DNA of 63,752 bases, filler included, from Hausera hauseri (Eukaryota): assembly GCA_046269625.1 (NCBI GenBank). It is 11 parts of 11 records of this genome, joined end to end, with 100 filler letters (N's around TTAATTAATTAA, not from the genome) between each part and the next. Parts side by side here need not be neighbours in the genome. Positions count along the whole stretch, not along the records: positions 4,919 to 11,008 come from JBJURY010142205.1; positions 11,109 to 16,344 come from JBJURY010302055.1; positions 16,445 to 26,030 come from JBJURY010337713.1; positions 26,131 to 34,343 come from JBJURY010726546.1; positions 34,444 to 39,154 come from JBJURY010465355.1; positions 39,255 to 44,305 come from JBJURY010350823.1; positions 44,406 to 49,249 come from JBJURY010416700.1; positions 49,350 to 54,956 come from JBJURY010221852.1; 3 more parts are not named here. One strand, 5' to 3'. The notes under the pieces were generated by a model. That model was not told the origin of the DNA. It saw only the letters and a program-made list of their open reading frames with translations, and did not search any database. Both the position numbers and the translations under genes were made by a program. Below, in pieces: positions 5,559-52,960 of this stretch (position 1 is its first letter; every line of letters begins with the position of its first letter).

Positions 5559-5589
5559 TCAACTATAAACAAACGTCGTCGTACGATTT

Positions 5590-10000: not shown

Positions 10001-12902
10001 TACAGCCCCGATTGTCAAATCACGTCCTTTATTATTTCAACAACCAACGAAATAAAAAAAACAACAACGTTCAGAACAAAATAACTCACTCATTATATTT
10101 TTCAAGGTTTCAATATTCAATTAATAATTTCAACAAAATAATGTGTCTATTTTTTGTCAGAGTTTCATTTATTTATACTCTGTCCAATGTTTGGCGACTG
10201 TGCGGCGGCGCCACTGTCAAAACTTCCGCCGCACAGGCCTTGTCAATTTGTTAATTAATAACTTTATTGCTGGCTATGAACAACGGAAAATCGATGTTAT
10301 TGAGTTTTTTTATAGTTTTTTTGCTTTGAAAATAAATCAACCTCTGTTTGAGAAGTATTGTTCTTGTTGATCACTTTATGTTTTAACGATGGAATTTCGT
10401 GACATCCCGCAAATGAATATGAAACTACAGGAACAAAGATAAACTACATCTTCAAGTCAGAAAGATCGGACACTTTACACATAAAAGTTAGAGACGGAAG
10501 TGGTCAAAGATTTTGCTACTGCAGATTGATTAATTTTAATTTTAATATTTTAGCTTAATTTTTATATATATAGAGTTATTAATTCCATGGACCAATAAAT
10601 TCCATTTTTTCTAACTGAGATTTTAATTATTATGTTCAAATTTTACAAAAATCAAATTAACTAGTGACAATACTGGCTTATTTGCATGCAGTGCAGTAAA
10701 AATGCATGATTAACAACATACCTAAATTTTTCAAAATTCACCATTAAAATGGACCAAAGTTAATCACATGAGAGAAAAGTTTATTTTACCAACAATTTCT
10801 GAAAACTAATTGCATTAAAAGCTGGTGTTTCGAAATATTTATCCAATTTAGTCATGTCATTTTACCAAAAAAATTTAATAAAATACAAACAATATGAATA
10901 GTTAACTTTCTATTTCATTTAACTTCGTTAGTTCAACTGTGCTACAATTTACAAAGTAATTCAACGAAAAACGACTTAAAAATCACAATTGGAAAATTGA
11001 CTTTTTATNNNNNNNNNNNNNNNNNNNNNNNNNNNNNNNNNNNNNNNNNNNNTTAATTAATTAANNNNNNNNNNNNNNNNNNNNNNNNNNNNNNNNNNNN
11101 NNNNNNNNAGGGCAACAATGGGATCTCGACAGGTGAGACTGCAGGCAGTGCATTAGCCCCATTCCCGCCTGCTGTGGTCTGTACGTGTCTGTTGACCACA
11201 CATGACGCGGCTAATGAACATTGTTTTCTTTGCCCAAAGGAGAGAGATGGGCCTATCGATGTTTCGCTTTTGAAAAATGTTTTTTCTCCACCGCAGGGGT
11301 TGAACTTTGTATCCGTCTAGAGAGATCTTCATTGCTCAGGACTTATAAATTGCTGTAAGAATCTCTTGATCGTTAGTCTGCGTGCCGTTTGCGCCGACGT
11401 GCTCGGCGAACTCTCTCACATGCATGTTTGACTCGAGTTCTCCTGTAATATATTCTGAATCGTCATAAATTGGGTGACATGCTTCCTAGGCATGACTGGT
11501 TTTGTCATCTTTCGGAGAACAGCGGACTGAAAATGTGGCCGTGCTGCTGGGTTGAAAGAGGGAAGCTATTAAGTTTAATAGGCTCAGACTAATAACGCCG
11601 TGTGTTGCACGCTCCGAACAGGTTCTGTGTTTGCTGTGTCCACACATCTTTCAAAAGAACAAAATTGTTTAGTCCAAACACCAATTTATTAAATTCAGAG
11701 GTAGTTTCCTTACCATCTTTCTTCCATATAAAACGTAAATATTTTTTGTCTGCTGAATCTACTGCAATTTGGAGAAACATTTTATGTATGTCGCAAATTA
11801 AAACGTAATTATTGCGACGCATTCGGATCAAGATGTCGATTACGTCGAGTTTTAACTTTGGACCGATTTCTAAGAAGTCATTTAGACACTTTCCCTTAAT
11901 TTTTGTAACTGCATCAAACATTGCGACATTTTGTGCTGCCACGGTCAAACTTAACAACAGGAAAATGTGGTAGCAGCCATTTTGTTTCTCTTTCCTCTCC
12001 TTTCGATACTTCTCTTATGTATGATTTTTCTTCGTATTCTTTAAGGACTTTGTTATATTCGTCTTTTCCCCTAATATCTTTATCTTTACTAGCAGCTCTA
12101 ATCTTCTCCTTGCCATCCATGATGTGTCAAACCCACTAACATCTGGATACCTTTCTTCCTTTCAGGGTAGTTTAACACAAAATCTATCTTTTTCATATTT
12201 TATTCCTTTTGTTACTTTTCCCAACAATTCAATCTCCAGGTTATTTAGCTCCGTCTTTTCCTGTAACCCCTGTTCTGCTTCCAATAATCTGTTCCAGTCC
12301 TCTTGCAATTCATCGGTTCTTTTCCAAAATGTTTTAACGAAATTTGTCCTCACCTTTTTCCTTTCATCTCCGATCAAACCAACGCACGTTCATCCAAGTG
12401 GGGTTAATCTGGCTATAGGCTCGTTTATTTTCCCTGCTATTTCCTTTATGGACCTATGCAAATGCATATAGTTCGCACCGATTATTCCATCAACTGATTT
12501 TGGTGATTTTTTAGTGTCGAACTTTATTTCTCTCAAGTGTGGCCATTTGCTTTTTTCGACCTCCCAATTCACGGCCATCATTTTTCCAGTAGGACCAACG
12601 CCTCAAATGGAATGTCAACCTTCCCGTTCTTACTTCGTAACCTCATTTTACCCTTTTTATTTTTGATTTTGTTGTCTCCCCACCTACTACCATAACGGAT
12701 ACACTTTCCTGCTTATTAACTAATCTTAGCTGTTGTGCAACGAAACGTTTCACAAAACACTCCGTGCTTGCGTCGTCTAACAACATACACATTTTATTTT
12801 TCGCTTTCCATTTTCCAACCATACGTCCACCGTACGCAATGCTACTTTATTTCCTGTCGTTTTCTCTTCTGAACGTTGAATTACATATGTGTTAACCCGT
12901 GA

Positions 12903-13232
12903 TTACGTTTCATCTCCCACGCCTTCCTCTTTGTTTACTCTTTCTTCTGTATGGTATGTATAGAACGCTTTTTCTTGTTTTTTAGAATTATCCTTTTTTA
13001 GCGGTGATTCATGAACAAAATGACAATTTTCCCCGTATTTACAATTTCCGTTCAGATAATATTTGCATATTCGTGTTTCAATTTTCCTATCTTTCTTGTG
13101 TAAAAATCTACAATTATTCCCGAATTTACAAGTCCCCTCCTTTTCAAATTCCCAGCAAAGAATTTTCTCGGTCTTATCTGCTGTTTTAACGTTGTTACCC
13201 CCTCTGCATCTTATCTTGAACTCGGGTCTCAT
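12903..13232 (-). CDS. Gag C-terminal segment with two CCCH zinc fingers
   Basis: LCWEFEKEGTCKFGNNCRFLH and ICKYYLNGNCKYGENCHFVH (C-x7/8-C-x5-C-x3-H). The segment is in frame with the 13233-13433 ORF across a single stop and lies just upstream of the protease. Confidence 0.88.
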   Translation of the reverse strand: MRPEFKIRCRGGNNVKTADKTEKILCWEFEKEGTCKFGNNCRFLHKKDRKIETRICKYYLNGNCKYGENCHFVHESPLKKDNSKKQEKAFYTYHTEERVNKEEGVGDET

Positions 13233-13368
13233 CTATATAAAAACTCTTCCGTGTTTCTTTATCATGTCTCCTACTTCCGAACGTTTCATTGTTCTTTCCG
13301 GTAGAGGGGAAATGATTCTCAACTCTGGTACGATTGTTAGTTGTTGTTTTATCAACTTTGTGTTCATT

Positions 13369-14772
13369 TTAAAACCTTGGCGGCGATCTAGCCTCGAATG
13401 TATTAAAGACGTTGATACCTCTAATTCTTTCAATGGTGCTCCTTCGTATGCTCGCCTCCGACTCCACCCAAATTTTCAATTCTTCAACTGTCCGATTTAA
13501 CCTCTTTTCGGAGGCATATCGCTCCCATAACAGTACTATGGACTCTGGGAGCTTCTCTACAAGGCTTTGGTATAAGAACCCTCCGCCTAATTTTTCCTTC
13601 CTTTTCAAATTTTGCAATCGTACTGTTATGCCATCCAACAATGCAATGAATCGGTCTAGGCCTACAATGTCTTCTTGCCTTATTGGTTTAAAACGTATTA
13701 CCTCAGTCATAAAGGCGGCATAACACCGTTGCTCTCCTCCGTAGTAGGAGTGAAGCTTTCCCATCGCGGCTTTATAACCTTCTTCTGATAAATCAAAGTT
13801 CTCAATCAGCCTTTTCGGTTCTCCATATAGGCATCTTTCTAACTGCAGCTGTTTGCATATGGTAGACATTGACGTTTTGTTTACACACGTATCGCATGTT
13901 CTTTTCCATCGATCATATTCAACGACTGCTCCACCAAATTGTGGCAGTTCCAACCTTTGTAACTTTGGCAGATTTAATTTTTCTTTCATTTCGCTGTCTA
14001 TTGCCTTTTTTGTAGAGTTGGCGACCAATTTATTATCCCGTAGACTGCGTTCATAAATTATCGTGTTGATTGTTTCATTTTGTTGATCTAACTTTTCTAT
14101 CTCATTTTCCAGTAATGCTATATTCTCTTTCTTTTTCAGTTTTTTAGCTGAGGTAGTCAAAAAACACAACTTCTCTTGGACATTTGCGAAAACCCTTTCG
14201 TAACTTTCATAAAATACTTCGTAATCGTGTTCATTCAAATTTACATCCATTAATCTCCTTCTAATCGAAGCTAGTTCATTTATAGGCCTTCGCCGTTCTG
14301 CAATGCATTCTTTAAGTGCCTCTGCAGTCAACTCGCTACCTCCTTTCAGTCGGAACATCACTTGAATTGTTGAACCACGTTTTAAATTTTCCACTTCTTC
14401 GTTGGTCCGTAACGGCTTCCCGCAGTGTAACATCATGAACTCATTTTTGATCTTCAATTTTTCCTTTATAAGTTCGATCCGATTGAGATGTGACAGGGTG
14501 TCACTTACATCAGCTATGAAGTATCGGTCATCGTAGTGTATAATTATCTGTTTTTCCATTTTTTCGACTTGCACAGCTGGAATTTTGTATGTCTTCTCTC
14601 CCTTTATCCTTCCTATTTCGTACTGCTCTAATTTGACCTTTTTCTTCTGATTCCTTGACTCTCCTTTTCCTTTATTTTCTTCTAGCGACTGTCCTTTCAC
14701 ATCCTCCGAGTATGTCCGATCTCTTTTTTTCCCACTTTCTGATTTCTGTTTCCCAATACAAATTCTTTTCAA
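13369..14772 (-). CDS. gag: BEL/Pao Gag ORF: basic linker, ubiquitin-like domain (about 14338-14560), coiled coil, DUF1759-like capsid domain
   Basis: 467-aa open frame containing SDTL...HCGKPL...NLKRGSTIQVMFRLKGG, followed by BEL Gag motifs. Confidence 0.88.
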   Translation of the reverse strand: MKRICIGKQKSESGKKRDRTYSEDVKGQSLEENKGKGESRNQKKKVKLEQYEIGRIKGEKTYKIPAVQVEKMEKQIIIHYDDRYFIADVSDTLSHLNRIELIKEKLKIKNEFMMLHCGKPLRTNEEVENLKRGSTIQVMFRLKGGSELTAEALKECIAERRRPINELASIRRRLMDVNLNEHDYEVFYESYERVFANVQEKLCFLTTSAKKLKKKENIALLENEIEKLDQQNETINTIIYERSLRDNKLVANSTKKAIDSEMKEKLNLPKLQRLELPQFGGAVVEYDRWKRTCDTCVNKTSMSTICKQLQLERCLYGEPKRLIENFDLSEEGYKAAMGKLHSYYGGEQRCYAAFMTEVIRFKPIRQEDIVGLDRFIALLDGITVRLQNLKRKEKLGGGFLYQSLVEKLPESIVLLWERYASEKRLNRTVEELKIWVESEASIRRSTIERIRGINVFNTFEARSPPRF

Positions 14773-15839
14773 TACTTTTATTTCCTTCCTTTAAATTTAT
14801 ATTTTTACGTCTGTTGCTTTCTATGTCACAACTAGACGCTTTTTTCTCTTCAATGTTACCATAATTACCGATCAAGTCTTTAAATTCCTCCAAAGGCGTC
14901 ATCGGTACTTTGCCTTCAAAGTTGTACAATTTGTACTTTCCATTCTCTATTACAACTTTTACAGGCTTGGTACGGACTCCCGCCTCAAACACACTGTGAT
15001 GAAGGAAAAGATGGCCGAAATCAAGAAGAAGGACATACAGACCTTCGAAGACAATCGCATTACGCGGTTTGTGTCTACGGATCACGTTGCAGAGCACCAA
15101 CCGCACTCTGCTACCATAAAATGGAAATTTTAAATGTGTCTGGTATAACGAATTATGCATATTTTTTCTTAAATGGATAACTAGTTTGCATCTACCATTA
15201 CCCCTTAGCACACTTCTCATTATCTCCTTTCTGAGTCCATATGAAATTTCTCCTTGGACATATTTCCCTTCAATCTCGTTTAAATTATTCTTGATCATGA
15301 AGACTTTAGATTTCATAACTATTTCATATCGTGTTTCTTCCCTTATTATTAATTCAAACCCCTTTTTGTTGGTCCCATTACCACACGGAAGATTCATGCG
15401 CCTTTTATATACAGAATTTATGATGTTGTTATGTTTACTTTGAGTTATTGATTTCCATCTTTACAACGTCTAACTCGAGTATCACCCCCGATTCCCAAAT
15501 CCTTATATCTAATATATCCCCATATGAAAAAACATTGAGGTTAAATTTTCAATTATACTCGGCCTTTGTTCTCGCGGTGCCTTTCCGCGGGGGAGTACCT
15601 CCACCTTTGAGTATTAATATCCATACAATCACTCTGATTTTGTCATACAATCCGGTACCACAGCCCCGGCTGACCTCCGGCAAACCAAAAGAACGTAAAC
15701 AAAAACAAATACTATTATTAAAATTATTTCTAACCCTTTCAAGTTTTAATATACAGCGAAAATACTTCTCCCCTTCAATGTCCTCCTCGTCAGCACAGCA
15801 ATTGGTTATTATTCTATATGCGACTACGTTTGAGTCATC

Positions 15840-16344
15840 AGGATGTTCATCGTTTTCTTTGTACGTTTCAGCTTCAGCAATCATTCTCTCGCTTTCACCC
15901 TTTGGTAATCGCCTTCTCTCGTTCACTATCATTATTTCACTCTCCTTATTCCATCCAATTCTACCAAGCAGATCATTATCTTCTATCATGATGCGCTCTC
16001 CTTTGTAAACTTGTTTGTCAATGACATTTCGTCTGGTCAACGTAATTGTGGCCCAATCAATAGTTTCAATGACCAAGTTAAAAGGAGTTACATCAAGAGA
16101 TAGATGATCCCGAACGGCTTTTGATTCATCTCCTATTAAACTTATGATCTGTATTGTTGTACTATACGCAATAGATTCGTCATAATTGATCAGTTTGTTA
16201 AATTCTTTTCCATTAAGGAGATCCAAAACAACATCATAAATGATAGTCTTGTCTAGTTCTGTGTATCTGAGAGATTGTTCAATTAGTGCTAAAGTCGTCC
16301 GAAGATGATCAATGTAAAGTTTCCCTAAACGGACTTCTATGATT
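15840..16344 (-). pseudogene. HSP70: Hsp70-derived segment at the 5' end of the BEL/Pao ORF
   Basis: IIEVRLGKLYIDHLRTTLALIEQSLRYTELDKTIIYDVVL-DLLNGKEFNKLINYDESIAY...GDESKAVRDHLSLDVTPFNLVIET...QVYKGERIMIEDNDLLG...NERRRLPKGESERMIAEAETYKENDE aligns with cytosolic Hsp70 (ITRARFEEL..DLFRGTL.PVEKALRDAKLDK..IHDIVL; FNGKELNKSINPDEAVAY; LLDVTPLSLGIET; QVYEGER.MTKDNNLLG; NDKGRLSKEDIERMV.EAEKYK.EDE). Confidence 0.88.
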
Positions 16345-17640: not shown

Positions 17641-18044
17641 CGTCATACACAGAAAGATCTGTAAATGAACAACCTACACGCTCATCTGTTGATGAACATT
17701 CTATAAGATTGTCTGCAAATGATCTGTCTGAAAGCTCCTAGATGTTTCAGGCTGGGGATTACGTTCTGGTTGCACTTAAAGTGTTGGCAGCGTGCGCATC
17801 CACTACGCCACGTCATCGTCCAGCTTGGGTAGGGTTGGAAAATACCCGCCTTCTGGTATGTCTGCTGAATCAGAATTGGATCGTTTGAAATTACTCATTG
17901 AAAAGTAAACACTAGTTGTAGAAAATTTTTATTGTAATCGAAAATACTTATTTGGGAACAAAAATTCTAAATTTAAATTACACTTTTAATATTACACTTC
18001 TAAATTAAATTTAAAATTTAAAATTGTTTCTAATTTAATTTTAG

Positions 18045-26130: not shown

Positions 26131-28652
26131 AATTCATCCTCAATTTGCTTCTTACTGTGCTTGACTGGTAAAGGTGCTCTATCACCTCGTAGAAATCTCG
26201 TTAGAAATTTTCTTTCGGCTTCACTTCCTATGAATAAAGGTTGGTAATCCTCATTGGATCCAATTACAAGTGTTTCACTCTCATTAAAGTTGTGCCTTAT
26301 GTTTACTAAGTCCACATATAGTATTTTCTCTATTAATTGTGGTATGGATAACAGTCTTAACTCATTCATAATTATCAACTTATGTATTTGACTCTTCATA
26401 CAGGTTGAATGTATACCACATCTATAATTCCAGGCCTTAGTTAATTCGTGCATAGGATTATACCATGGCAGAGTTAATCCGGATACGTTCATTATTTCAT
26501 CAAATATTCTTAGTCCGGAACTATAAATTCTCCTTTCGTTTTCATATCGTTCTTTAAAGGATTTACCTTCAATTAATGCTTCCTTAGCTAGCTGACATCG
26601 AAAGCTAGTAAATAGCAATAGATTATCTTTCATAGGATGAATATTGGGGTTATATTTTGATTTTTTTTGATATTGTTTAAAATATTTCTTATACATGTCA
26701 AGGTAAAATGATATGAGTTCTTTTCTTAAATGATCTGACGAACTCCATAAATAATTTGCATACTGAATACTTTGATGAATGTCCCAGTTGTTTCTTTGAC
26801 GGGATGTTATCTCATTTTGATACATTTCTGGCATACTTTCTCCGTTCATTTTAAGTCGTTTAATACGTTCTTTCCATTCCAACTGCATTATATGCGTTTG
26901 TCTAAGGTCATTAATCATTATTCTTTTGTCTGGGGCTTGATCAAGTGTAGTTACAGGGATTCTATTATTCAAAGGTAAGTGAGCTACTCGATTAGCGACG
27001 GTATATAATTCGTATTCCTCCGTTGATAATTCGTGTCGTTTTCTACGAAGCTTATTTATATGACGAAATATTGGAACGACTTCGTTAACAGTCAAATATG
27101 GGTGATCTGTTATTGATTCTACCCCTTGGGCGATTAATGCTATGATTATTTGTGTCTCTTCCGAGAGTACGTCAAAAGGAGAATAAATTTCCTCTTTTAT
27201 ATAGTTGATTATGTCTTCATTTTGAGTTATTAATTGTAAATAGTGTTGATTAAGTTTCGGATCTTTAGCATAAATAGCCAGGTTTAACTGAACTGAGGTA
27301 TTCAGATTTAACCATCCTTCATCTTGTTCAAATCCTCTAACGAAGACTTGTTGTTCTCCTTTATCTTCTTGTATTCTTTTACGTTCGTAACTCTCTATTT
27401 GCCGAGATAACGGTAGGTGTGGATCTATGGTAGAGCTTTGAGATTTGTTTACTTCTAATTGTTTAATACAGTAATTATCTACGTGATCAGTGTTTTCATG
27501 CTCAAGTGACAAGGATTTATTAATCGCTATCTCCTTTAATTGTGCTGTGGTTCGACGTTTTATTAATTTTGGTTTGATAGTTGGGACTTCTTCTATTACT
27601 GTATGTCCTTCGATCGGAGTAATGTCCTCATCACCACTTGATTGTTTGGTTGTTTTCATATGGAACATTAGATTAATAAAGATTAACAATACCAACCAAG
27701 TCAACGAACTTTCTGGTATATCTTTCGGTATCATTGGAGCGGCTTCTGCTGTTCCAAATAATATAAATGGAATAACGAGTAATATTAATATCGGGTAAGT
27801 TAATCCGATACCAATTGTATTGAACTGGTTACTGTTAACTGATATCTGTTCATTTATTTCTTTTTCTTCATTAGTATTCGAAATGCTTTCCTCAGTAGGT
27901 TCAAATTTATTCATGTCGGTGTTAATACTACTGGTTATCTGATTGTTAGGGTTATTACTTCTAACTGCTGCCCAGAAGGCATCGTTCTCTTCCTTGAAGC
28001 GTTCATCCGTGTATTCCTCCATTTTGGATAACTTTTTATTATAGTGTAACCCTAAGATTCGCTCGTCAAAAGCATTTGATCCTCGGAGACTCCTTGTCAT
28101 AACTGCTGCTGTTTCTTTATTATTACCTATCCTTTGTCTGCAAGTGTTTATTATTCTTTTTCTTTCTTCTTTAAATGGTCTAGCTATTTCGTCATTATCA
28201 GGTAGTTCAAAAAATATTATATGATACCGTATTGCATTTAACTTACCCGAAAATCCACTTGCGTTTACTGTATCAAATTTATCTATATCCATATAATCCT
28301 CCGGGGTTAAAATGGTGTTCACATTTCGTTCTAAGTAATCGTTCCATACTATCCGTGCTTCGTCTTCCTCAAAAAGTTTTATATCTTTTCGAATAAGATC
28401 ATCCTTTATGGCCATGAGTATCTAAGTCATCCAACATTTAATCGCATAAGCTTCAGACTGAGAATTAGCATTCAACTCTTCACCATAATGTTTAAACAAG
28501 TCCAGACATTGATTAGCTACCTTTGATATTCTTTTAGAAGTTCTACTTGCTATTAATTTCGTGGATAGTCTTTGAAGATAGTTAGTTACATTAGTTATAG
28601 CAAATGAGTCAGTCATATCAGTTACATTGAATGACGGTGGTCTTTTTTGCAA
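26131..28652 (-). CDS. Giant modular polyprotein, part 3 (76-aa and about 760-aa frames separated by one stop; runs off the contig edge)
   Basis: KCWMT*ILMAIKDDL...WNDYLER...GKLNAIRY is the third copy of the repeat domain. It also has a third signal/TM unit and a fourth PLFIGS motif. Confidence 0.82.
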
Positions 28653-30070
28653 AGTTGAGTGATTAGCATACGTTCTCTTCGACTTCCGATGAATAAGGGT
28701 TGATATTTATTTCTGTCTCCATATACTATACTTTCTTCATATGTTAGGTTATGCTTTTCTATTAGAAAATCGAATGATCGTAAGCAACGAGTTATTTGTA
28801 GTATTGAATGGGTTTCTAATCGGTCCTTTATTAACAATTCGTGTTTTGGATACATAGGTTCATTACCTAATATTCCCATCGTTTCGTTCCATGTTCCTAT
28901 CATAATTTTAACTGGTTGTAACCATATAGGTTGTAATTGTATTTCCCTTATAACTCGTTGTAGTAAACGAAATCCTTGGTAATACATCCTAGTTTGAAAA
29001 TCTACCCATGGGTTGAATTGCACATCGTCTATCGGAATCTTGTATGAGTTGTATAGAAGACTGGATATTAAAAGTAGTTGATAATCATAGGTTGATTTCC
29101 CAAGGTCTATTCCTGTTTCATGTCTTAATCGATTAAAATATGACTCATATAAGATCATGTACAGTTTCATGAAATTTTCTTTATCCTCGTAAGGTAGTTG
29201 ATCTATGCTACCTTGTAATAACAGACAGTTAACAATATCTCTACTCCGTTCTCTAGGTGTTTCCCCATATATGCGAAGTTTTGTATCAGGATAATCAGGA
29301 TTGAGTAGAGCGGCATATTCGGTTTTTGGTTCAATATCATCTAACCATTGTTCGTTTCTGTCGGCTATAATGCGTAGATTCTTTATAGTATTTGGAATAT
29401 TTTCCTCTTCTGAACATATTCTTGTTGAACTTACTGGAAAGTGTGGTGGTTGATATACTAATCTATATAGCACTTGGTTCATTTCTTCCCTCAGTGATGG
29501 AAGATTCGCTGGGTTTACTCTTAAACTATTTACTAATCTAAAATAGGGAATTATTTCATTAGCCATTGTATAATTATGTATTCCTTTAGGGTATAGCGTC
29601 TTCGCTATGATAGTTAGAATCGTCTTCGTCTCGTGTGTCGTTTCCTTGGGTGCCAAATTAATATCTTCTCGTATTGCTTTTATTAGCTCCGGTGCTATAC
29701 GTTTATTAGTTTTATATGGTTCCCATTCACACCCATTTTTATTTAATTCTTCCATAACTTCCTTTAGTGATTTTGGTAACTTTCTCCATTCTTCAGTGTC
29801 AACATAGTTTTTTCGTAATATTCCTTTAGGACAACTATATCTCCCTTTCTTCGAAGGAGGTTTATATGTAGAATTAATATCTTCCCAATCCTCTCTTTGA
29901 CCTGGATATGGTAATCTTTTTTCTAAGTGAAAAGAGCATTCGTGAAGTTTATTCTTTTTTCTATATTCTGTCATTATGTGTATTAGACTAGAATAGCCAT
30001 CGCCAAACTGTGTTTGTTCTTCGTGCTGTTCCTCCGGTAATCGTTGATCTAGAGAAAGGTTTAGTTGCAT
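28622..30070 (-). CDS. Giant modular polyprotein, part 2 (482 aa), probably joined to part 1 before a stop and frameshift
   Basis: Same strand and composition as part 1. It ends with YQPLFIGSRRERML, homologous to the motifs in part 1. Confidence 0.8.
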   Translation of the reverse strand: MQLNLSLDQRLPEEQHEEQTQFGDGYSSLIHIMTEYRKKNKLHECSFHLEKRLPYPGQREDWEDINSTYKPPSKKGRYSCPKGILRKNYVDTEEWRKLPKSLKEVMEELNKNGCEWEPYKTNKRIAPELIKAIREDINLAPKETTHETKTILTIIAKTLYPKGIHNYTMANEIIPYFRLVNSLRVNPANLPSLREEMNQVLYRLVYQPPHFPVSSTRICSEEENIPNTIKNLRIIADRNEQWLDDIEPKTEYAALLNPDYPDTKLRIYGETPRERSRDIVNCLLLQGSIDQLPYEDKENFMKLYMILYESYFNRLRHETGIDLGKSTYDYQLLLISSLLYNSYKIPIDDVQFNPWVDFQTRMYYQGFRLLQRVIREIQLQPIWLQPVKIMIGTWNETMGILGNEPMYPKHELLIKDRLETHSILQITRCLRSFDFLIEKHNLTYEESIVYGDRNKYQPLFIGSRRERMLITQLCKKDHRHSM

Positions 30071-30194: not shown

Positions 30195-33100
30195 CTATGA
30201 CAACTCATCTTCCTGTATTTCTTGGTTACAAATATATTCTTCACGCTCCCTTTCAAAAGGTTCGGCTAATGCTTGATCGTCATTCAACATGCAAAACAAC
30301 ATCCTATATCGTAAGGCATTTAGATTGCCTGTCAATCCTTTTTCATTTATTCGTTCCAGCCGATTGATTTCAATACTATCTTCCTCTGTTAAGGGTGTAT
30401 CTTCATTTCTAAGTAGGTAACCATTCCATAATATTCGAGCTTCTTCTTTTTCCATTTCCTCTACCTTTTCTTTCGTTAATTCGTCTTTTATTGTCATTAA
30501 TACGTAAGTCAACCAACAATTAACCACGAATAGATCGGATGTTGTCTTATTTACCAATTCTGCTCCGAAATTTTTATACAGGCCAATACATTTCTTCCCT
30601 ATTTTCCTAGCTTTCTCTTGATTTATAAATTTTTCACACATTGGGGATGTTTGCCGTAGTAGCATAAACATGTCTATATTAGGTAGTTGTAGTTTTTTCT
30701 CATTTGTAGTATTAATGAAAAGAATTCGGTCTTGTGCACTACCAATAAACAGAGGTTCATACTTTCTTATATACTTATAATCGGAATGATTCGATGTAGA
30801 TGGAGTTTCTTTATACAATTCAAAATTATTATTATAGATTCGGTTTGTTTGTGGTCCACTATTTATCCTTAAAATTCTCACTAATTTGTCATAGTTCGTA
30901 CAATTTTTGAATGTTTGATGACCATAGGGAAATCGGAAAGAGGATTCCATTGCACTTACCTTAGGTTCGTCAATTATGAGAATTGTTTTATCCATATCAT
31001 CAGGTATTTCAAATCCTTGTTTACCACGGCGTCTATCCCGATTGAAATTTGGGGCGCACACTATCCTTTGTCCCCCAAAACATTTATCCCAATCGAATTT
31101 TAGAGCGCTAACGATCCTTAAGAATTCCATACTAGTCAAAATACACAATCCCTTGCTAGGTATTGGTCCGATATTTATGGGTTTTTTAGACTCCCCTTGT
31201 TCGGGTATCTTTACAAAATTATCCATCTCGATATTATTGTTTGGTTCCATTAAGTCATCATTTCCTTCAACTTCGCTATTGTCGCATAATGAGTCCTCAT
31301 TTTTCTCCATTTTTGAAGGTTCTTCACTGAGATAAGTACATGTATTTTGCTCTTCGAAAATGTCTAATTGTTGTATCTCTTTCGTCGTATCACTCAATTT
31401 CCTTTTCTTTTTATCTCGTTTTGATTGACAATTATTTATTACATCCTCTCGTTCCTTTCTATACATTTCAACCTTCTGATGGTTATCATCTAGTAGACAG
31501 AACAGTAACCGATAACGTAATGCATTTATTCTGCCTGACGTTCCTCTAGCGTTTACTTGTTCCACTTTGTCGATTTCTTCTCTATCTTCCTTAGTTAGTG
31601 ACGTATGTATATCTCTATATAGATAAATATTCCACAAAATTCGGATTTCATCTTCTTCCATTTCTTCTATTTCCTCCCTTTTTAATTCATCCTTTATTGT
31701 CATCAATGTATAGGTCAACCAACAGTTGATTATGAATGCATTAGACGTTTTTGTATTCACCAGTTCACCTCCAAAATTTTGGAATAGTCCAATACATCTT
31801 TCTCCTATTTCTTTAGCTTTTTCTTGATTTACATACTTACTGCATAATGGAGATGTTTGTTGTAACAAAGCAAGTGTATTATTAGTAGAAATTCGTGGGA
31901 TTTCTTTTCCGAAATAATAAATAAGGAATTTTCGTTCCTGCTTACTACCAATAAACAAAGGTTCGTATCTTGATAAATGGTTTAAGCATTTCGATATGAT
32001 CCACTGCTTCTCATTATCATTAGCATCATAATCAGCCGGTTCAGGTTTACTTAATTTCCAATTAATGGTATGAATATACTGGATCAGTTCTATCGGAGTA
32101 AATGTTTGGGCAGATAGCAACCTCATTTCGCATATTTCCCTTAGATCCTTTGCTAATTTATCGTAATTTATGCAGTTGTGTATTGATTGATACTCATAAG
32201 GGAACTCTAAGGGTGATTGTCTCAAACACTCCAATTGCTCTTGTATCGATGTATTAGTAGATGTACAACTAGATATTATTTCCGTATCTTCCGAAGGGAC
32301 TTGATTTGAAAATTTATCCGTTTCCTGGTTAGCAATATGGGTTCCTTCTTGTTTTTCATCATCGAGTGTACCATTCAAGGAATTTGTGACTTTTATTGGT
32401 TTTTTGCATTTGGAGAGACGTTCATAAGATTCGTCATCATTGTTACTAAAGAATTTACTCATCATCAACAACGAAAATACCCATAACAATACTGAAGTCC
32501 ATGAAGAATTAGAGCGATGGGATACAGTCTCGACTGCCTCTGTTGCACTAATCATGGAGAGCAAACATATTCCCATAAGGAATAACGTTCCCAGGGAGAA
32601 TGTGGAGTAACTCTTGATACCTGATGATTCTCGTTTTCTATTTTTTTCTTGGAGGTCTTGAATGTGCATTGCTCTTGTTTCGTTAGCTATCTCGTCCATA
32701 TATTTAATGCTATTACCCGCAAATTGTAATCGATCTATTTTCATCCACTGTTCAGGGGGAAGATTAATATCTAGAGGCTGTCCCATTCTTCTGTTCCAAA
32801 CTCGTTTAACTTCCTCTACCCCATTAATAAGTTCTCTGCCTCCTATATTTATGTTATGATGTTTAAAAATTTTTATTGCTTGACTAGCGGCTACATAATC
32901 ATGATACTGTAATTTTCCTGGGCTAGCCAGATCAGGAATCGTATAATACACTTCTTCGCAGCTTATTTTCAGGAAAAATGTGTCCAATGCGGTTGATGCA
33001 TTAAAGTCTAATTTTAGGTCTTCGCAAACTAATTTTATTATGGGTCTATATTGTTCATCTGTTATTCCGCACTTCTCGTGGTATCTGCTAAGGAAATCTC

Positions 33101-34343
33101 TTAATTCCACTACGCTATTTATAGGTCCTTTAAGTAATTGCTGTGCGTGATTTATGCGTTCTGGAGTAGCTAACAAGAAATTCTCCAGTCTGTGTCGGTT
33201 AGCTGCCTCTCTGGTCAATGGGAGTGGTGGCAAGTTTCCCCCTTTTTGTTGAGGTAATTCGAAATAATTCTGTTCAATTGGTTTGACCTCTTTACGTTGT
33301 ATCTGTTTAGTAGGGTCTATTTTCCTTAGCTTAATATCGTTATACTCAGGGAATTTTGGACTTTCTTCTGATTGATGTTTTTCAATTTCCTCTCTTAGTC
33401 GTTTAATATTTTCTTCAGCTTCTTCCAACTTCTTACTTAAGGCGATATAACTCACGGGTGGCTGCATATTGCTTGTAGTCTGCATTTCCATTAAATCGGG
33501 ATATATTGTCGTTGTTGATATAGGTCTTGGTACGTCTTGAAACGAATTTCGCGGTAGTTTCTGTGGTATACTCACCATACTATTTATCGGACTAGTGTCC
33601 ATATCAATTACCGAAGGCAAGGGTACTTGTTTTCTTGCTTGATCATTCAAGGAAGAATTATCTATTTCCTCATCATCCACTATTATACGGCTATTAAACA
33701 TATAATAAACTAATATCGACAATAACATGATTGTACTGCTCCACGCATTTGTAGCTGTTGTCATGTGCGTTGGTTGGGCGTCCGCACATCCAAATATTAT
33801 AAGCAATATTAGCGTTAACAGGGTTATTGTCGACAACTTAAAAGGACTTCCGAAAATTGTAGATGGGGTATTAATTGTAGGTATTTCCATTACTCGTGTT
33901 TGTGTTATTTTTCGTGCTAGTGTAGACTCTGTATTCTGTTCACTTAACTGCTTTAATGTAACATAATTTAATGAGGGTGGAACAGTCTCCTCTCCTGGCG
34001 CAAACCACCATTGATCATTAGGTTGAGGCTTGGTATCCTGGTAACCTTCGCAGTTGAATACAATTGATCTTCCAATAACTTTGAGTTCTGCTCCCGTTAG
34101 TTTGTATAGTACATCTAAACCAATAATAAGATCAGAATACGACTCTTGTGGGTTGGCATAACAGGTAACATCAATATAACCTATAGTTAGATCTAATTTT
34201 CCGCATGCTTCGGGTATATAATGTGTAATTCGTCTATATAATCGCAAATTTATACGAGTCAGCGGAGTAGTGGTATCAAGTTCCGCATTAACATACTTAC
34301 CGTATACTTTAACCAATATTGGTATCAACAAAGGGTAATCATT
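30195..34343 (-). CDS. Giant modular polyprotein, part 1 (>1378 aa, open from the contig edge): degenerate retropepsin, two signal/TM units, two copies of an unknown repeat domain
   Basis: An uninterrupted 4.1-kb frame in AT-rich DNA. N-terminal VKVYGKYVNAELDTTTPLTRI...DLIIGLDVL resembles a retroviral aspartyl protease fold, with DTG changed to DTT. Confidence 0.85.
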   Translation of the reverse strand, partial: NDYPLLIPILVKVYGKYVNAELDTTTPLTRINLRLYRRITHYIPEACGKLDLTIGYIDVTCYANPQESYSDLIIGLDVLYKLTGAELKVIGRSIVFNCEGYQDTKPQPNDQWWFAPGEETVPPSLNYVTLKQLSEQNTESTLARKITQTRVMEIPTINTPSTIFGSPFKLSTITLLTLILLIIFGCADAQPTHMTTATNAWSSTIMLLSILVYYMFNSRIIVDDEEIDNSSLNDQARKQVPLPSVIDMDTSPINSMVSIPQKLPRNSFQDVPRPISTTTIYPDLMEMQTTSNMQPPVSYIALSKKLEEAEENIKRLREEIEKHQSEESPKFPEYNDIKLRKIDPTKQIQRKEVKPIEQNYFELPQQKGGNLPPLPLTREAANRHRLENFLLATPERINHAQQLLKGPINSVVELRDFLSRYHEKCGITDEQYRPIIKLVCEDLKLDFNASTALDTFFLKISCEEVYYTIPDLASPGKLQYHDYVAASQAIKIFKHHNINIGGRELINGVEEVKRVWNRRMGQPLDINLPPEQWMKIDRLQFAGNSIKYMDEIANETRAMHIQDLQEKNRKRESSGIKSYSTFSLGTLFLMGICLLSMISATEAVETVSHRSNSSWTSVLLWVFSLLMMSKFFSNNDDESYERLSKCKKPIKVTNSLNGTLDDEKQEGTHIANQETDKFSNQVPSEDTEIISSCTSTNTSIQEQLECLRQSPLEFPYEYQSIHNCINYDKLAKDLREICEMRLLSAQTFTPIELIQYIHTINWKLSKPEPADYDANDNEKQWIISKCLNHLSRYEPLFIGSKQERKFLIYYFGKEIPRISTNNTLALLQQTSPLCSKYVNQEKAKEIGERCIGLFQNFGGELVNTKTSNAFIINCWLTYTLMTIKDELKREEIEEMEEDEIRILWNIYLYRDIHTSLTKEDREEIDKVEQVNARGTSGRINALRYRLLFCLLDDNHQKVEMYRKEREDVINNCQSKRDKKKRKLSDTTKEIQQLDIFEEQNTCTYLSEEPSKMEKNEDSLCDNSEVEGNDDLMEPNNNIEMDNFVKIPEQGESKKPINIGPIPSKGLCILTSMEFLRIVSALKFDWDKCFGGQRIVCAPNFNRDRRRGKQGFEIPDDMDKTILIIDEPKVSAMESSFRFPYGHQTFKNCTNYDKLVRILRINSGPQTNRIYNNNFELYKETPSTSNHSDYKYIRKYEPLFIGSAQDRILFINTTNEKKLQLPNIDMFMLLRQTSPMCEKFINQEKARKIGKKCIGLYKNFGAELVNKTTSDLFVVNCWLTYVLMTIKDELTKEKVEEMEKEEARILWNGYLLRNEDTPLTEEDSIEINRLERINEKGLTGNLNALRYRMLFCMLNDDQALAEPFEREREEYICNQEIQEDELS

Positions 34344-43675: not shown

Positions 43676-43765
43676 TATTTCCTTTTCACATAAATTTTTA
43701 TTAATGTATGTCATCATTTGTCTAATGTATTTTATGTATCCTTTAACTGCCTTTATGGCAAAGAA

Positions 43766-44285
43766 TGTCACCTTGTTCTGCAGCACTTGTTATCATTCCT
43801 GTCGTCACCTTGTCTAATTCCAACTGTTCTGGAATTCACTGTACATTTTTGTTAATCTTTGACTCTCTTGTGATATAAATGTAACTCTTAGTTTCCAAAT
43901 AAAGGCCAGCCGGCGCCTGCACAAAATGCTCTAAGCTGAGCTTTGCTCGGCGAGTAGCAGGAGTTGGAATACAATATTTAATTCTCAACTAAGATCTTAC
44001 TGAGTCCTGCGTGACTCGATTAGCAAATGACTTGAGTCCTGCGAGACATAATTCTATCAAATGTAACCTTTCAGTTCTCCGATGAGTCCTGCGAGACTCA
44101 TTTCTGCCTTTGCTTTTATGGTCAACAACCTTCTTTGTAACTCATGTAACCTCTGTATTCTATTTGTAATTTTTGATACTAAATAAAATCCCCGGCGCCT
44201 GCACGAAATGCTCTAAGCTGAGCTCAGCTCGGCGAGTAGCAGGCGTTGGAATTCAATGACTGTAAGTAATCAGTATTTTGTGACA
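43766..44285 (+). mobile_element. Putative LTR (about 520 bp)
   Basis: TGTCAC...GTGACA inverted termini, internal TATAAA and two AATAAA, and a weak purine tract upstream. No PBS follows, consistent with a 3' LTR. Confidence 0.5.
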
Positions 44286-45328: not shown

Positions 45329-48300
45329 TGTTATAAAATTTCTATCCCGTTTCGGTATTCCGGTGTTAATATACCGGTTGTCTTATATAAAGATAAGTAA
45401 AGGTATCGACACCAGTGTTCCTCCTGGTGAACGAACTACAATAAGGCAAATTAAACTAACAAGCAGACCCCACAGGCTCCTTTTAAAATTTAATAATAAT
45501 CTAGGTCTAAGGAGAGAATACCTTAGACTTTATCAGAAATTGATTAAGAGTATAAGTTTGGGGTGGTAAAGTAAGCTCAATCAACCTTTAAACTTATCAA
45601 TGGTGCCTCGAGTGAGGAGGCATACTGGCATCGTATTCTTTACAAAATAAACGTAAAGTACATGCTACTATCACAACTTCACGTACTGATTCGGCAAAGT
45701 GTAGTTCCGAATCAGACGAAAATCCACAAATAAACTTAAACGAGAACCCAGAGATGTCGAATTCCGGAGTAGGCGCAAACATAGGCAGCAACCTACCAGG
45801 AACGATGGTGTTACCGATGGATAAATATGAGGCCAAACCAGATCAAGAATATGCAGAATTTATTATGCAATATGAAATGCACTCCGAAAGCTTTAACTGG
45901 ACAGATGAGCTTAGGATGAAGTGGCTCCCTTTGCACCTTAAAGGCATAGCACTAAATGCTTATACACAAATAAAAGATAATGAAGATAAAGCTGATTGGG
46001 CTAGCCTTGCTGGAGTAAATAGCTGAAATGAGGAAATACTATATAATCAGACCCAGTAACTCTTCATGGGCAGTTCCAATTGTAGTGGTACAAAAGAAAG
46101 ATAGTTCTATCAGAATGTGTGTAAATTATCGTGCTCTCAATAAAATGACAATAGATATCACCTATCCGTTACCTAGAATCGACGAGCTACTAGATAATTT
46201 AAAAGATAAAATGTTATTTACTACGCTAGATCTACCTGAAAGATTTTGACAAGTAGAAATCCAGGAAGATAAACAAAAAACAGCTTTTGTAACTGCAGAT
46301 GGACATTATGAGTTCAACTAAATGCCATTAGAAATGAAAAATTCCCCGGCAACGTTTCAAACAGCTATGGATATAATAATAATGGACGCTCCACACATAA
46401 TGTGTTATGTGGATGATGTCATAATTGCTTCAACTGGTTATAAACAGCACAAAGAACAGCTCAAAGACAAATGTTGCTTTGCTAGAACCAAAGTAGACTT
46501 TTGAGGTCATACTGTGAGTAGGGAAGGCATTATTCCTAAGATTGGAAAAACAAATAAAATACAATATTTTCCAGTCCCGAAAACAGTTAGAGCAGTCCGT
46601 AAATTTCTTGGTCTTACAGGATATTATAGAAAATGCGTTAAGGACTACCAGCAAATAACGTCTTCATCACGTTCGCTACTGCAAGAAAACTCCAAACTTG
46701 TTTGGACTCAAGAATGCCAAAAAGCATATCAACAGCTAAATGATAGCTTATTGGCTCCACCAATATTAACTTTTTCAAATATATCAAAATCATATTTCCT
46801 GGCCACAGATGCGAGTAAAATTAGAATTAAGGCTGTTTTGTCCCAAAAAGGATGTTCAAGAACAAGAACATCCAATATCGTTAGAAGGCAGGAAGTTGCG
46901 AAAACATGAAAGAAACTACTCTACAATCGAGAGAAAACTACTTACGATTGTATATGCATTGGAACAGTATGGACAGTATATGTCGGAAACCAAACCCATC
47001 ATTATTTATACCGACCATAAACCACTACAGTCGTTTAAGAACCATAAGAATCCAAGTAGTCGTGTAATGAAATGGGCAATGTTGCTACAGCCCTATAGTT
47101 TAATGTTTGAGTATAAAATAGGCAAAGCCAGTGCTAATGCCGACTACATGTCGAGAATACCTAAAGACATGGTCCAAAAAGAAGAAGAATTGGTAGATAA
47201 TCCGGGCGTTATAGCAGCCATTTGGAGTATCACGGAACAAGAAAAATCTATATTATAAAACAGCAGAACGATGAGTTTCAACGAAAAAAACAATACCAAA
47301 AGATACTAACCTCCATGCTCATCTAATAAAATTCGCAGAAAATGACGAAGTAAAAGACGGTATTATGTACTATAATTATAATGGAAAATTTGTTGTCGTG
47401 GTTCCGCAAGATGTAAAATTACTATTGACCAGCCCTTATGGAATTTTCAGCGATGGATATTCTGGGACCACTGCCAGTGACAAAAAATGGAAATAAGTAT
47501 ATGTTAGTATTTGTTGACTTATTTTCCAGATGGCCGGTCGTAGTTCCAATATCGGATCAAAAGGCCCAAACTATTGCCCAAGCGTTGTTGAAGAAATTGT
47601 GTTTAATTATAGAGCACCTACCAAATTATTAACAAATCAGGCCCCAAACTTCACAGGAAACGTAATTGCGGAAATATCGAAAATATTTCGAATATTACAG
47701 CTGAAAACTACTCCGTATCATCCACAGACTAATGGAACGGTAGAGCGGTTTAATAGAACTTTAACTAATATGCTGGCGACAATGGTTAACGAACGGCAGG
47801 ATGATTTGGATGAATATATAAAGCCCTGCTTGTTCGCCATCAGGAACACAATTCATCCGACAACAAAAGAAACACCATTTAATTTGATGTATTTTAGAGA
47901 TGCTCATATGCCGGTCGATTTAGATTTTAAGGTGCCTGTTTCCCATCTGAAAGATGTGGAATATAAAGAACTTCTAGAAAAGAAATTGGGATATGTATGG
48001 AATTTGGCTTCACGACGTATAAAATTATGCCAGAGTATAAAAATAGATACAATGAAAAAGCTAAGTCACACCGCTTTAAAGCTGGAGATAAAGTCATGTT
48101 ACATACAACTTTGAGTAAGAAAGGAAAGACTCCAAAATTGGACAGACCATATAAGGGCACATGATTCAAAAGGTGGATGAAACTAACGTTTGCCTAAATA
48201 AGAATGAACGCAATAAAACGGATCCGATAAAAGTTCACGTGAACCGATGCAAACAGGCACCGGCAGAATGAAAACTACGGAGTGAAAATCTTAATTTATC

Positions 48301-49249: not shown

Positions 49250-49806
49250 NNNNNNNNNNNNNNNNNNNNNNNNNNNNNNNNNNNNNNNNNNNNTTAATTA
49301 ATTAANNNNNNNNNNNNNNNNNNNNNNNNNNNNNNNNNNNNNNNNNNNNAACCGACATATTAGAATGTTAAATAAAGAATTTTAAACAAATTTTGTAGCA
49401 TTATTGTCCTCAAAAAGACATTTATATATAGTTTATTACAATATGTTGCTGTAAAAGAATCATATTGTTATTTTATATTGACTATAAAGTCATCAACTTG
49501 GACACGGCCTTGCCAAATAACAACATTTAATAGAAATTGATTAAACAAATTATTTTATCAAAAACGCCCTCATTTATGAGATTACCTTTATACTGATAAT
49601 TGGATATCTACATATACTTATAGTACAACAAATTGTATGTGCGAGATTCAAAAATATATCTGCCCAACCGATGTTCTCTAACGAAGATCTCAATAAGATC
49701 GACATATTAGAATGTTGTGACAGAGACTGGTTGAATTTTTTCAATAACAATATTCAGAGGTAATGTAGTAGTAACTAATGGTTTCTTGCATCACATGACA
49801 CGACAA

Positions 49807-50782
49807 TTACCATTCATGAATAGAATTATTGTACATTCTTGATGAAGAGTTTATATAACTATTACACGATAAACTCATCTCAGCAATGCATAACTCGTAC
49901 TTGAAATAAAAGTTTTTGTCTATAAATATGTTGTTTATATTAATATGCGAACTAACTTTCTTCCATTCTACATCAAGCCCCAATATTTCTACATTCAGTC
50001 CTCTACCTTCAATCAATTCCCTTTTCACCTTCATTTTTTTAAGTGTGAAATTAACTTGTTTCAATGATGATACATTTTCAATCGGGAGGAATATCTACCT
50101 TTAATACCATCTCCCAACACAGTCTCTTTAACCCCATCAAGCATAGTACTACTCATCACATTAGTATTTTATGAGTTATACGATGTACAATTATTATTAT
50201 ATTCAGTAACAGACCAATTAAATGATCGATTCGAATCGTCATCTGATAAGATGAAATTCTCCAACAATTTCCACAAATTCAATATTTGAGCTTCCCCACA
50301 ATTCCATAAATTACTGATAACCAACAAAAAAACTTGGCCAGATACGTCAAATCCCAACCACATACCACCCTCCTGTTTACAAATTCGTTTATTTTCAACT
50401 GAATTATCTGTAATGTATTAATTTCAAAGTAACACATTCCAGTTTCACCTTCAATAAAATAAAAGACACCAGTACATAAATACCACACTATTGTACGAAC
50501 AACCAATCTCAACTTATTACAAAAAGTTTGCCCAACATTCTCAACCATGTAAACACCGCTTGTTGTTCCGATAAAGCAAAATAACACAGAAAATATCCAA
50601 TCCCACGCCCCTTTTACCCCCACAACGCAACCCGAACCGACATTCGTGGGATTGAAATAAGAATAATAACCAACGATATTATTAAAATCAATTTTGATTT
50701 TGTCAAAATACGCAGCAGGTCGACAAGTGAATAGAAAGTTCCACCATGACCGATTAGTAAGGTTACCTTTTAAGTTGCTCAT
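49807..50782 (-). pseudogene. Frameshifted ORF of unknown function downstream of the 202-aa ORF
   Basis: Three consecutive same-strand fragments (167, 64 and 85 aa) with protein-like composition. Confidence 0.45.
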
Positions 50783-51387
50783 AGGATTGAAATTAGACCT
50801 CGATAGATTTTCTTGCTCGATGTAATTTTTTTCCCATTGACTTGTTGATGTATTTCAACTGATCTTGACGCAAAACGAGAAAATATCGATGATAATTCAT
50901 CTATTTCTTTGTCGGAGAGACGATGATCGATTATCAAGTCAGTGACGATAAGCTGTCGTGCAATAAAACGTTTCCAATATTTGATAAACGATTTCACATT
51001 ATTTTCATCTGCAGACATCAACGACAGTTGACCTTTAGTATCTTGCACCATAACATCAGATATTGTATCATCCGAAACCCACGATGAATAACAAGGTAGA
51101 ATATTCGATTTCGGCAGAAGTTTCACAATTATTGTGTTTAAGATTAAATCTCTAGTGATCGGTTTCATTTTACTCGGTCTTGGATATTGTACATTTAATG
51201 TCACGTCCCCAATTTTGATTCCAGCGGGTATATTAAAGTCCATAGATTCATTTTGTATTTCTCTGCGTACCAACGCAACTTCCTCTTGATTTAATTCGTC
51301 CCCGTTCATTTGTATTAAACGATTAAAAAGTTCATCTTCTCGATTGATCAATCTCGTAATCTTCTTCATTTTCCTTAACAATGTCAT
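50779..51387 (-). CDS. Intact 202-aa ORF of unknown function, with a possible C-terminal winged-helix
   Basis: Open ATG-to-TGA frame whose stop overlaps the ATG of the next ORF (ATGA). The C-terminus has an RFX-like pattern (IKYWKRF...LSSIF...SKKIYRGL). Confidence 0.55.
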   Translation of the reverse strand: MTLLRKMKKITRLINREDELFNRLIQMNGDELNQEEVALVRREIQNESMDFNIPAGIKIGDVTLNVQYPRPSKMKPITRDLILNTIIVKLLPKSNILPCYSSWVSDDTISDVMVQDTKGQLSLMSADENNVKSFIKYWKRFIARQLIVTDLIIDHRLSDKEIDELSSIFSRFASRSVEIHQQVNGKKITSSKKIYRGLISIL

Positions 51388-51629
51388 TTTGCAATATAAA
51401 CCAAACTCAATTGTTTCTTTGCAATTTCAAATTTTTAAACCTTATTTAATTAATTCTTTTCATCGATTTATCTTTCAGATTGCTGTATATACAACATCTT
51501 TATATTTATTTTATCACATTGTGTTCATACTCAAATTAATTCATTTATTTAAAATGTACAAAACCCACGCATTGTTATTTCTCATCTTTCGTAGACAACT
51601 GCACATACGAACAAATATACTTTTTATTG

Positions 51630-52960
51630 TTATCTAATTCGACTTGTTCTATTTGTTCGTCGTTCGTCAAAAAACCATTTCTTTTCAAATTTTCTGTACG
51701 CAATGTAGTCCTCCGAATACCGATCCCATGTGACAACTATTGCTTTTAATTTATACCTAGCTTCCTTAGTATCGCTGGTTTGGTGTTCATTAAATATTAA
51801 TGGAAATTTTAACTTAAACGATTTATTGTATTGAATATGATATACAGGTTTTATCATTTGTCCCTTATCGGATCCAATTTATTGGCCTGAATGTAACAAA
51901 GGATTTTCGGTAGCTACAGAAAGAAGCACATCTGCATTACATTATTAAGATCGTCATCTATCATCGATGGTGAAAAATATAATCTGTGACCAAATCAGTA
52001 ATGTCAAGACCAGATGGCTCTCCATAATTCCTTGTTAAACTGATTGATAAGCTCAGATGATACTGAATTTTATTCTTGTAATAACTGTTACTATACATAG
52101 GAATAATTTTGAATTTCAGAGGAACTTTATTTGTCCCAACATGATTTGTATATTCTTTTTTTCCATGCAGCACGTTTCCTCTCTGATTTTGAATCTAACC
52201 GGTATGCTTTCTTTTGATTTATAATTTAAGGCTTCATATGCAATTATGCCAACAAGAAATGCTAAAATTAGCACTATTGCAAGTACTATCAGAATCCAAG
52301 GAATATAATGATCTATGAATGATGATGTTAACGTTGTTGTGTTTATTTTATGAGCAATTTGAATGGAGAAGGCTTCATTTAAGATTGTAAGTATTATGAG
52401 CATAAACAGTAGTCTTGATTAATTGGCAATTCGCCTAAACAAATAAATATACAGTATGATTTTACTATTCTTTTCGTTGTTCGGTTTCATGAGTCTTCTC
52501 TTTATTCACATTAACTCTTGTATAATTATCGGTGAATCCTAAACACGCAGCATCCTTTCGTTCGGCTTCTTTTAAACTAATTGGTATAATTCGACAGTAA
52601 ACTCAAATAGCACCTCGCATGTCTTCAATTTGATTGTAACCTATTTTCCGTATGAATGTTTCTTTGTAATTTCTCGGCCCAGTTCTTCGTTTTGATTCAC
52701 CGCTTGAAGTTTATCGAGAAGCTTACTAGCCGCTTCTGAGGTCTCAGATTTATTCTGATTCCCGTCATTTCAACTTGAACCTTTACGATTTATTTTTCTC
52801 TCTGTCTTGGTAATTTCAAACTTCATTCGCTGATTCTTTCTCGTCTATTTCTTTATTACTGCACCAATTCCAGTGACTCTTGTTTTCGGTAACCTTTCAC
52901 TTCTCTCCAACTCACAAGTCTAATTTTTTCCTGTATAACGTTTGTTGCTTAGATGAATGA
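51630..52960 (-). pseudogene. Decayed chimeric ORF: charged coil, kinesin-14 neck fragment, signal/TM segments, inactive USP-like domain
   Basis: 52680-52500 reads RNYKETFIRKIGYNQIEDMRGAI*VYCRIIPISLKEAE (compare kinesin-14/KCBP RKRYYNTIEDMKGKIRVYCRIRPL..KE). TM: IPWILIVLAIVLILAFLVGIIAY. C-terminal YKLKAIVVTWDRYSEDYIAYRKFEKKWFFDE (compare USP YxLxAVVxHxG...GHYxAY.K....W..FDD). Confidence 0.7.

Follow-up and report, generated by a model that had tools for sequence, protein, structure and literature searches.

A broken BEL/Pao-type retrotransposon with a candidate ubiquitin-like spacer and an unrelated, cassette-bearing repeat family in Hausera hauseri

A stretch of 63,752 nucleotides from the genome assembly of Hausera hauseri (GCA_046269625.1), referred to here as the window, contains two separate repeat-encoded proteins whose parts may be released by host proteases, and one decayed relic. 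The window comprises 11 contigs of 4-10 kilobases (kb) each, joined by N-spacers; two of the loci are complete contigs (contig 3, 11109-16344, and contig 5, 26131-34343, both read on the minus strand), and the third (51630-52960) lies inside contig 9. We put the probability of the following account at about 0.58: a host deubiquitinase would cut a spacer in contig 3, a broken retrotransposon of BEL/Pao type; signal peptidase would split the protein of contig 5, a separate, high-copy and probably mobile repeat; 51630-52960 is a relic; and the three are unlinked and dissimilar. An earlier sequence-only reading had joined them, as a hypothesis, in a single expansion strategy for giant retroelements in this genome; it placed them correctly on separate, unlinked contigs, as the contig layout bears out, and the analysis indicates two real, separate cases and a relic, with a genome-wide strategy not supported.

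Contig 3 had been described as one long open reading frame (ORF). It is a run of separate frames, the longest of 473 codons, that encode in order an Hsp70 piece, an unassigned frame, a ubiquitin-like (Ubl) domain, Gag, two CCCH fingers, a decayed protease, and the start of a reverse transcriptase (RT), all on the minus strand. The Gag (13372..14337) consists of a coiled coil followed by DUF1759 (13938-13513; Pfam E=1.5e-11, above the cut-off). Two CCCH zinc fingers (12906..13232; Pfam zf-CCCH, E=9.5e-15) occupy the place where Gag usually carries CCHC knuckles; the tandem is a family trait, since it is also present in P0002, the sole relative found among 831 candidates (56% identical over 384 residues). 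The aspartic protease region (12228..12825), which contains stops and frameshifts, is recognized by a three-frame alignment to the protease region of P0002 (Asp_protease_2, E=0.004), and the RT start (11592..12014) matches RVT_1 at E=0.0043, below the curated cut-off. RNase H, integrase, and long terminal repeats (LTRs) were not found on this 5.2-kb contig. The DUF1759-type Gag and the order Gag, protease, RT are shared with the BEL/Pao LTR retrotransposons (PMC3118150); contig 3 differs from these in the Ubl-GG spacer and host fragments before Gag, and in the two CCCH fingers. Its domains mark contig 3 as a BEL/Pao-type element, now broken, whose 5' extension is unusual.

The spacer is a divergent Ubl domain (14338..14580) that is in frame with Gag and ends in FRLKGG, the last two glycine codons (14343-14338) standing directly before it. 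In a PDB search, 19 of 20 matches were ubiquitins, with the diglycine in register; the E-value for a single ubiquitin is 0.3, and lower values are sums over polyubiquitin repeats. The domain is about a quarter identical to ubiquitin, and NCBIfam gave a Urm1-like match (E=0.028). A single-sequence structure model has a fitting order of strands and helices at a predicted local distance difference test score (pLDDT) of 37; a fold search with it gave no fold match, its matches landing on the Gag helices. P0002 begins MAFKLKGG-SE where contig 3 has FRLKGG-SE, so F-[RK]-L-K-G-G-S-E is kept. No relatives of the Ubl/Gag junction were found among viral contigs or metagenome contigs. A literature search, weak because the spelling with a slash is not searchable and because Repbase and subscription papers lay outside it, returned no report of a Ubl spacer before a BEL/Pao Gag, and the word "ubiquitin" is absent from the main text of PMC3118150.

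Diglycine tails had been proposed as recurrent domain borders, and only one of the three GG motifs of contig 3 holds up. A GGG following LILK (15597..15605) is unsupported as a cleavage site, no Ubl domain being detected before it; the GG at 15605 was considered as the tail of a second Ubl copy and rejected, there being no ubiquitin-like domain upstream. P0002 lacks an equivalent of the GG at 13202. A strict tail pattern, picked after the tail had been seen, occurs once in contig 3 (a count reached by 8 of 300 shuffles), and a loose GG pattern, likewise post hoc, occurs three times against 0.68 expected (reached by 9 of 300).

Upstream of the spacer, a degenerate Hsp70/Hsc70 fragment (15834..16334; Pfam HSP70, E=2.3e-8) corresponds to residues 300-534 of Hsc70 (E=2.4e-23), with which it is about half identical when counted on the alignment. 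The proposal of degenerate host-derived domains is borne out here and nowhere else among the three loci, none being detected in contigs 5 and 9. The fragment has three in-frame internal deletions and no stop, within an open frame of 264 codons that continues beyond the contig start. When neutral decay to 30-40% divergence was simulated 1000 times, 170 codons stayed open in 9.5% and 4.1% of cases; the rarity of such an open frame is therefore a modest sign that the piece was translated while decaying. Between it and the Ubl domain, set apart from both by breaks, lies a 262-codon frame (14675..15460) without a Pfam, PDB, or PHROG match. P0002 carries a different host piece: after its protease, where RT would be, residues 691-993 are an in-frame 300-residue fragment of CFAP58 (E=3e-39), and the joint has no GG motif.

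These features suggest a mechanism in which pieces of host mRNA would enter the element by template switching during reverse transcription, and a host deubiquitinase would cut after the Ubl GG, freeing Gag from the captured upstream sequence. Such a cut would fix the N-terminus of Gag (Ser-Glu) irrespective of what lies upstream, so that an N-terminal extension could be tolerated; the element's own protease would keep the remaining cuts, with a single junction handed to the host. We regard capture by template switching, with the extension tolerated through the GG cut, as reasonably probable.

Both halves of this mechanism have parallels. In cytopathic pestiviruses (for example bovine viral diarrhea virus (BVDV) CP Rit and Osloss), a host mRNA fragment and ubiquitin are inserted in the polyprotein and cut by host ubiquitin C-terminal hydrolases, the ubiquitin insertions giving NS3 its authentic N-terminus (PMC8310069). 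The systems differ in that these are RNA viruses with near-intact ubiquitin and demonstrated cleavage, whereas contig 3 is a retrotransposon with a highly diverged Ubl domain and a predicted cut. LTR-mediated retroposition places host gene pieces within LTR elements, often in frame, across animals (PMC5131818), and the Hsp70 piece of contig 3 and the CFAP58 piece of P0002 can be likened to it; its abstract mentions no cleavable linker.

A long ORF, as proposed for all three loci, is present in contig 5 alone. Its frame runs for 1382+517+73+763 codons, interrupted by two frameshifts and one stop, and is open at both contig ends; in 200 shuffles the longest frame averaged 86 codons and reached 136 at most. 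The duplicated domains that had been reported are present, and the frame has grown by internal duplication, with three copies and the start of a fourth of a repeat R, each bearing Y-[EQ]-P-L-F-I-G-S, and two of a domain Y. On the minus strand, R copy 1 (31293..32201) combines the motif with a helical domain; copy 2 (30216..30926) is 47% identical to it and has a frame break just downstream; and copy 3 (28005..28720) is interrupted twice, by a frameshift and by a stop. Y copy 1 (28640..29689) ends in YQPLFIGS and is 27% identical (BLASTP E=1e-25) to copy 2 (26133..27215), which holds the fourth YQPLFIGS and runs off the contig end. For a further orphan domain, X (32634..33206), the sole relative found is P0001 (61% over 93 residues).

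Contig 5 is a large repeat family: matches at 85% identity or more occur in 19,827, 2,952, 364, and 292 contigs of four sequencing runs, one of which may be the source of the window, and neither depth nor contig number amounts to a copy count. The matching contigs span 30, 30, 30, and 28 of 30 bins of contig 5, and their differences are mostly transitions. The frame is real and under protein-level constraint. Identity between R copies 1 and 2 by codon position is 0.67/0.77/0.56, most differences falling at the third position, and the 40 variant sites listed out of 1,711 include 21 synonymous ones, a proportion of 0.30 being expected (p=0.002). In all four runs the segment 32433-34343, which includes domain X and a protease-like stretch at the N-terminus, has a summed depth several-fold that of the Y and R repeats; it may be common to more subfamilies than they are.

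Three cassettes separate modules of this frame (minus strand). Each opens with a hydrophobic helix and a small-X-Ala site; a loop 10-15 residues long then leads to another hydrophobic helix, after which comes a charged linker. Cassette 1 (33684..33842) has the site A-D-A; cassette 2 (32442..32603, T-E-A) is homologous to it (score 60, which just 1 of 1000 local shuffles attained); and cassette 3 (27666..27818, A-E-A) scores 48 against cassette 1 (24 of 1000 shuffles). The three are 25-28% identical to one another, with small-X-Ala kept after the first helix, and they stand at three of the five module borders read off the domain map. A crude -3/-1 rule predicted a site after two of the three first helices, none of the three second helices, and none of six ABCA segments, with a background of 6.8%; the third first-helix site, seen by eye, lies just beyond the range scanned. 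The signal-peptidase-like cassettes of the earlier reading are thus present in contig 5; contig 9 has one similar but unrelated segment.

Polyproteins of flaviviruses, hepaciviruses, and pestiviruses contain internal signal peptides, in which a hydrophobic helix and a small-X-Ala site are followed by a second membrane helix. Contig 5 differs from these: its cassette has been duplicated, belongs to a genomic repeat, and has no ectodomain, its lumenal loop measuring only about 10-15 residues. By analogy, each cassette would enter the membrane of the endoplasmic reticulum and return, and would be cut on the lumenal side by signal peptidase; the paired helices would hold the globular modules in the cytosol, and the cut would leave separate membrane-anchored pieces. 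We give even odds to lumenally cut cassettes that yield membrane-anchored, cytosol-facing modules.

Alternatively, neither kind of linker is cut: the Ubl domain would be a captured passenger or a binding module of Gag, and the cassettes uncleaved hairpins that anchor one long protein. The low identity of the Ubl domain to ubiquitin (about a quarter) and the shortness of the second helices are compatible with this, as is a SUMO-like domain in the planarian Burro elements, for which PMC6431247 (section 7) states no processing role. We consider it unlikely, since the GG and the four residues before it are kept, exactly at the start of Gag, in proteins only 56% identical overall, and small-X-Ala is kept in three cassettes only 25-28% identical.

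What kind of element contig 5 belongs to is less plain from its domains, and the claim of a retroelement with host fragments applies to contig 3, where Ubl-GG is conserved directly before Gag; in contig 5, where cassettes do lie between the modules of a high-copy repeat, no retroelement enzyme was found. No meaningful family match was obtained in Pfam, PDB, NCBIfam, or PHROG, and host domains, RT, RNase H, integrase, Gag, and LTRs were not found on its 8.2 kb, which are open at both ends. Residues 1-1200 had one relative of 95 residues (P0001) among 1.84 billion representatives, and there were none among shorter proteins, viral contigs, or JGI metagenome contigs; an Atlas search with P0001 gave scores all at or below 0.86. 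No RNA dataset with contig 5 is listed, which says nothing on expression. The first 100 residues (34044..34343, minus strand) resemble by eye a retroviral-type aspartic protease, with D-T-T-T at the place of D-T-G; Pfam, PDB, NCBIfam, and pairwise tests gave this no support. Domain X was tested as a Gag and rejected. A model of repeat R (pLDDT 50) gave nothing in Foldseek at E<=0.001, and its best VIA match (Z 7.0, root mean square deviation 5.2 over 110 residues, to dynein motor domains) is below the trust level of the tool.

Such an orphan could instead be an endogenous gene of a DNA virus or an amplified host gene family, leaving contig 3 as the sole retroelement polyprotein. The lack of RT, RNase H, integrase, Gag, and LTR on 8.2 kb, the failed tests of the protease-like and Gag-like guesses, and Polinton-like sequence elsewhere in the window would fit this. 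It is nevertheless very unlikely in our view: thousands of divergent contigs, rich in transitions, matching over the whole length and with broken frames, are what a transposable element would leave, and there is no relative among viral contigs and only one 95-residue piece in the 1.84 billion representatives. On balance we lean slightly towards contig 5 being a retroelement.

A further comparison is with Burro/GYPSM1, giant Gypsy-like planarian elements with a long, domain-accreting polyprotein that includes the SUMO-like domain; in these, Gag comes first, the cargo lies between Gag and protease, and an ORF of 4,900-5,100 residues contains RT and integrase (PMC6431247, section 7). The marks of a Burro-type element are protease, RT, RNase H, and integrase in the polyprotein and a length of more than 30 kb with LTRs; none was detected in contig 5, which is open at both ends. 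Relative to the description in PMC6431247, contig 3 has a BEL-type Gag with the cargo upstream and not the Gag-first layout of Burro. In contig 5, neither Gag nor RT nor integrase was detected, and growth is by self-duplication; it shares high copy number with Burro (19,827 matching contigs in one run, which is not a copy count).

Several points weigh against the account favoured here, of a deubiquitinase-cut spacer in contig 3 and signal-peptidase-split modules in contig 5. Weak E-values (0.3 and 0.028) are all that the Ubl matches reach, and at a pLDDT of 37 the single-sequence model cannot be relied on. Because P0002 begins just two residues ahead of the tail, only conservation of the tail is visible, in two copies; moreover, host exons are long here, and P0002 may have inserted next to or within a CFAP58 exon of the host. 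Stops and frameshifts lie between the Hsp70 piece and the Ubl domain, so a single polyprotein is not established, and neither is the place of the Hsp70 piece inside the element. Cassettes 2 and 3 do not match significantly (389 of 1000 shuffles), two of the five module borders have no cassette, the -3/-1 rule is a crude one, and the three cassettes do not count as independent cases. The 40 variant sites are the best supported of the 1,711 and not a random draw. Cuts at the GG and in the cassettes are predictions, no cleavage having been observed.

Region 51630-52960 is a decayed relic. Its longest frame has 100 codons, a length reached by 10 of 500 shuffles, and the three frames contain 37, 34, and 16 stops, so that it lacks the long ORF of a mobile polyprotein. 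The 100-codon frame (52119..52418, minus strand) is isolated and has a signal-like helix and a membrane helix; it is not homologous to the three contig-5 cassettes, since 323, 873, and 781 of 1000 shuffles scored at least as high against them. An 82-codon frame (51633..51878, minus strand) resembles by eye the C-terminal box of a ubiquitin-specific protease, minus the catalytic His; Pfam, PDB, and NCBIfam did not support a deubiquitinase. No Ubl-GG tail was seen in the region. On its downstream side, at 50282-51426 (minus strand), two neighbouring frames remain open for 215 and 191 codons and have no family match.

The loci thus compared can be set against the idea of one genome-wide strategy by which giant retroelements take up pieces of the host and leave processing to host proteases. 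Two distinct repeat families in the window do have a linker of host-protease type at module borders, and the reported A-richness of the sense strand was confirmed in all three loci (37%, 39%, and 39% A, vs 34% and 29% in two host genes of contig 10). The absence of introns is not diagnostic of retro-origin here, because two host genes, NXF1-like and ABCA, have unbroken stretches of 416 and 690 codons themselves. Against the idea, the loci have no sequence in common (when their minus-strand frames were compared in translation, the sole match, E=0.048, fell in a coiled-coil stretch), no contig combines the two linker kinds, and a long ORF is missing from 51630-52960. Neither a host piece nor a retroelement enzyme was detected in contig 5, two of the three GG motifs fail, the captured CFAP58 piece is joined without a linker, and giant size is not established. 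We regard it as improbable.

Its components fare no better taken singly. A common system finds no significant similarity across the three loci, contig 5 having grown by duplication without detected host capture and contig 9 holding a relic; the general expansion strategy would rest on two unrelated fragments and a relic, with a CFAP58 joint that has no GG; nothing at these loci supports a giant element, and no LTR-like repeat was found in the three contigs. Outsourcing of processing would involve at most one junction of the BEL/Pao element, since it encodes its own protease. The likeness of contigs 3 and 5 is likely to be convergence on linkers cut by host proteases and not one system.

The window also contains Gypsy, BEL/Pao, and Polinton-like pieces (Pfam). 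A decayed protein-primed DNA polymerase region of Polinton/adintovirus type (2102-2962, plus strand) has Endonuclease_7 and DNA_pol_B_2 matches; similar pieces were recognized by eye at 53312-54051 (minus strand), and broken frames at 5334-7494 (plus strand) resemble by eye the capsid-region genes of such elements, with no notable Pfam match. Decayed, ordinary Gypsy-type elements lie at 45616-48111 (plus strand, with an integrase match) and, by eye, at 59369-62089 (plus strand). Non-coding nested direct repeats at 41000-44260 include a 536-base duplication (42013-42547 and 42517-43050, 93% identity). The NXF1-like gene (55057-56304, plus strand) and the ABCA gene (57199-59268, minus strand) are arranged tail to tail, with exons unusually long for an animal-like genome. 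Taken with CFAP58 in the related record, these genes and mobile-element pieces suggest that the source is a ciliated eukaryote and probably an animal.

A cleavable Ubl spacer, if true, would explain how in-frame, changing host fragments can be carried without spoiling particle assembly, and would extend the pestivirus trick to retrotransposons. Contig 5, for its part, encodes an abundant orphan protein that exceeds 2,700 codons and combines protein-level constraint with a simple predicted membrane architecture. More speculatively, and we think this rather doubtful, the retroelements of this lineage might use plug-in linkers cut by host proteases (a Ubl-GG spacer before Gag, and duplicated hairpins of signal peptide and membrane helix), so that a polyprotein could lengthen through capture or duplication and need no new sites for the element's protease; contig 5 might then belong to an undescribed family of very large elements composed of orphan membrane-anchored modules.

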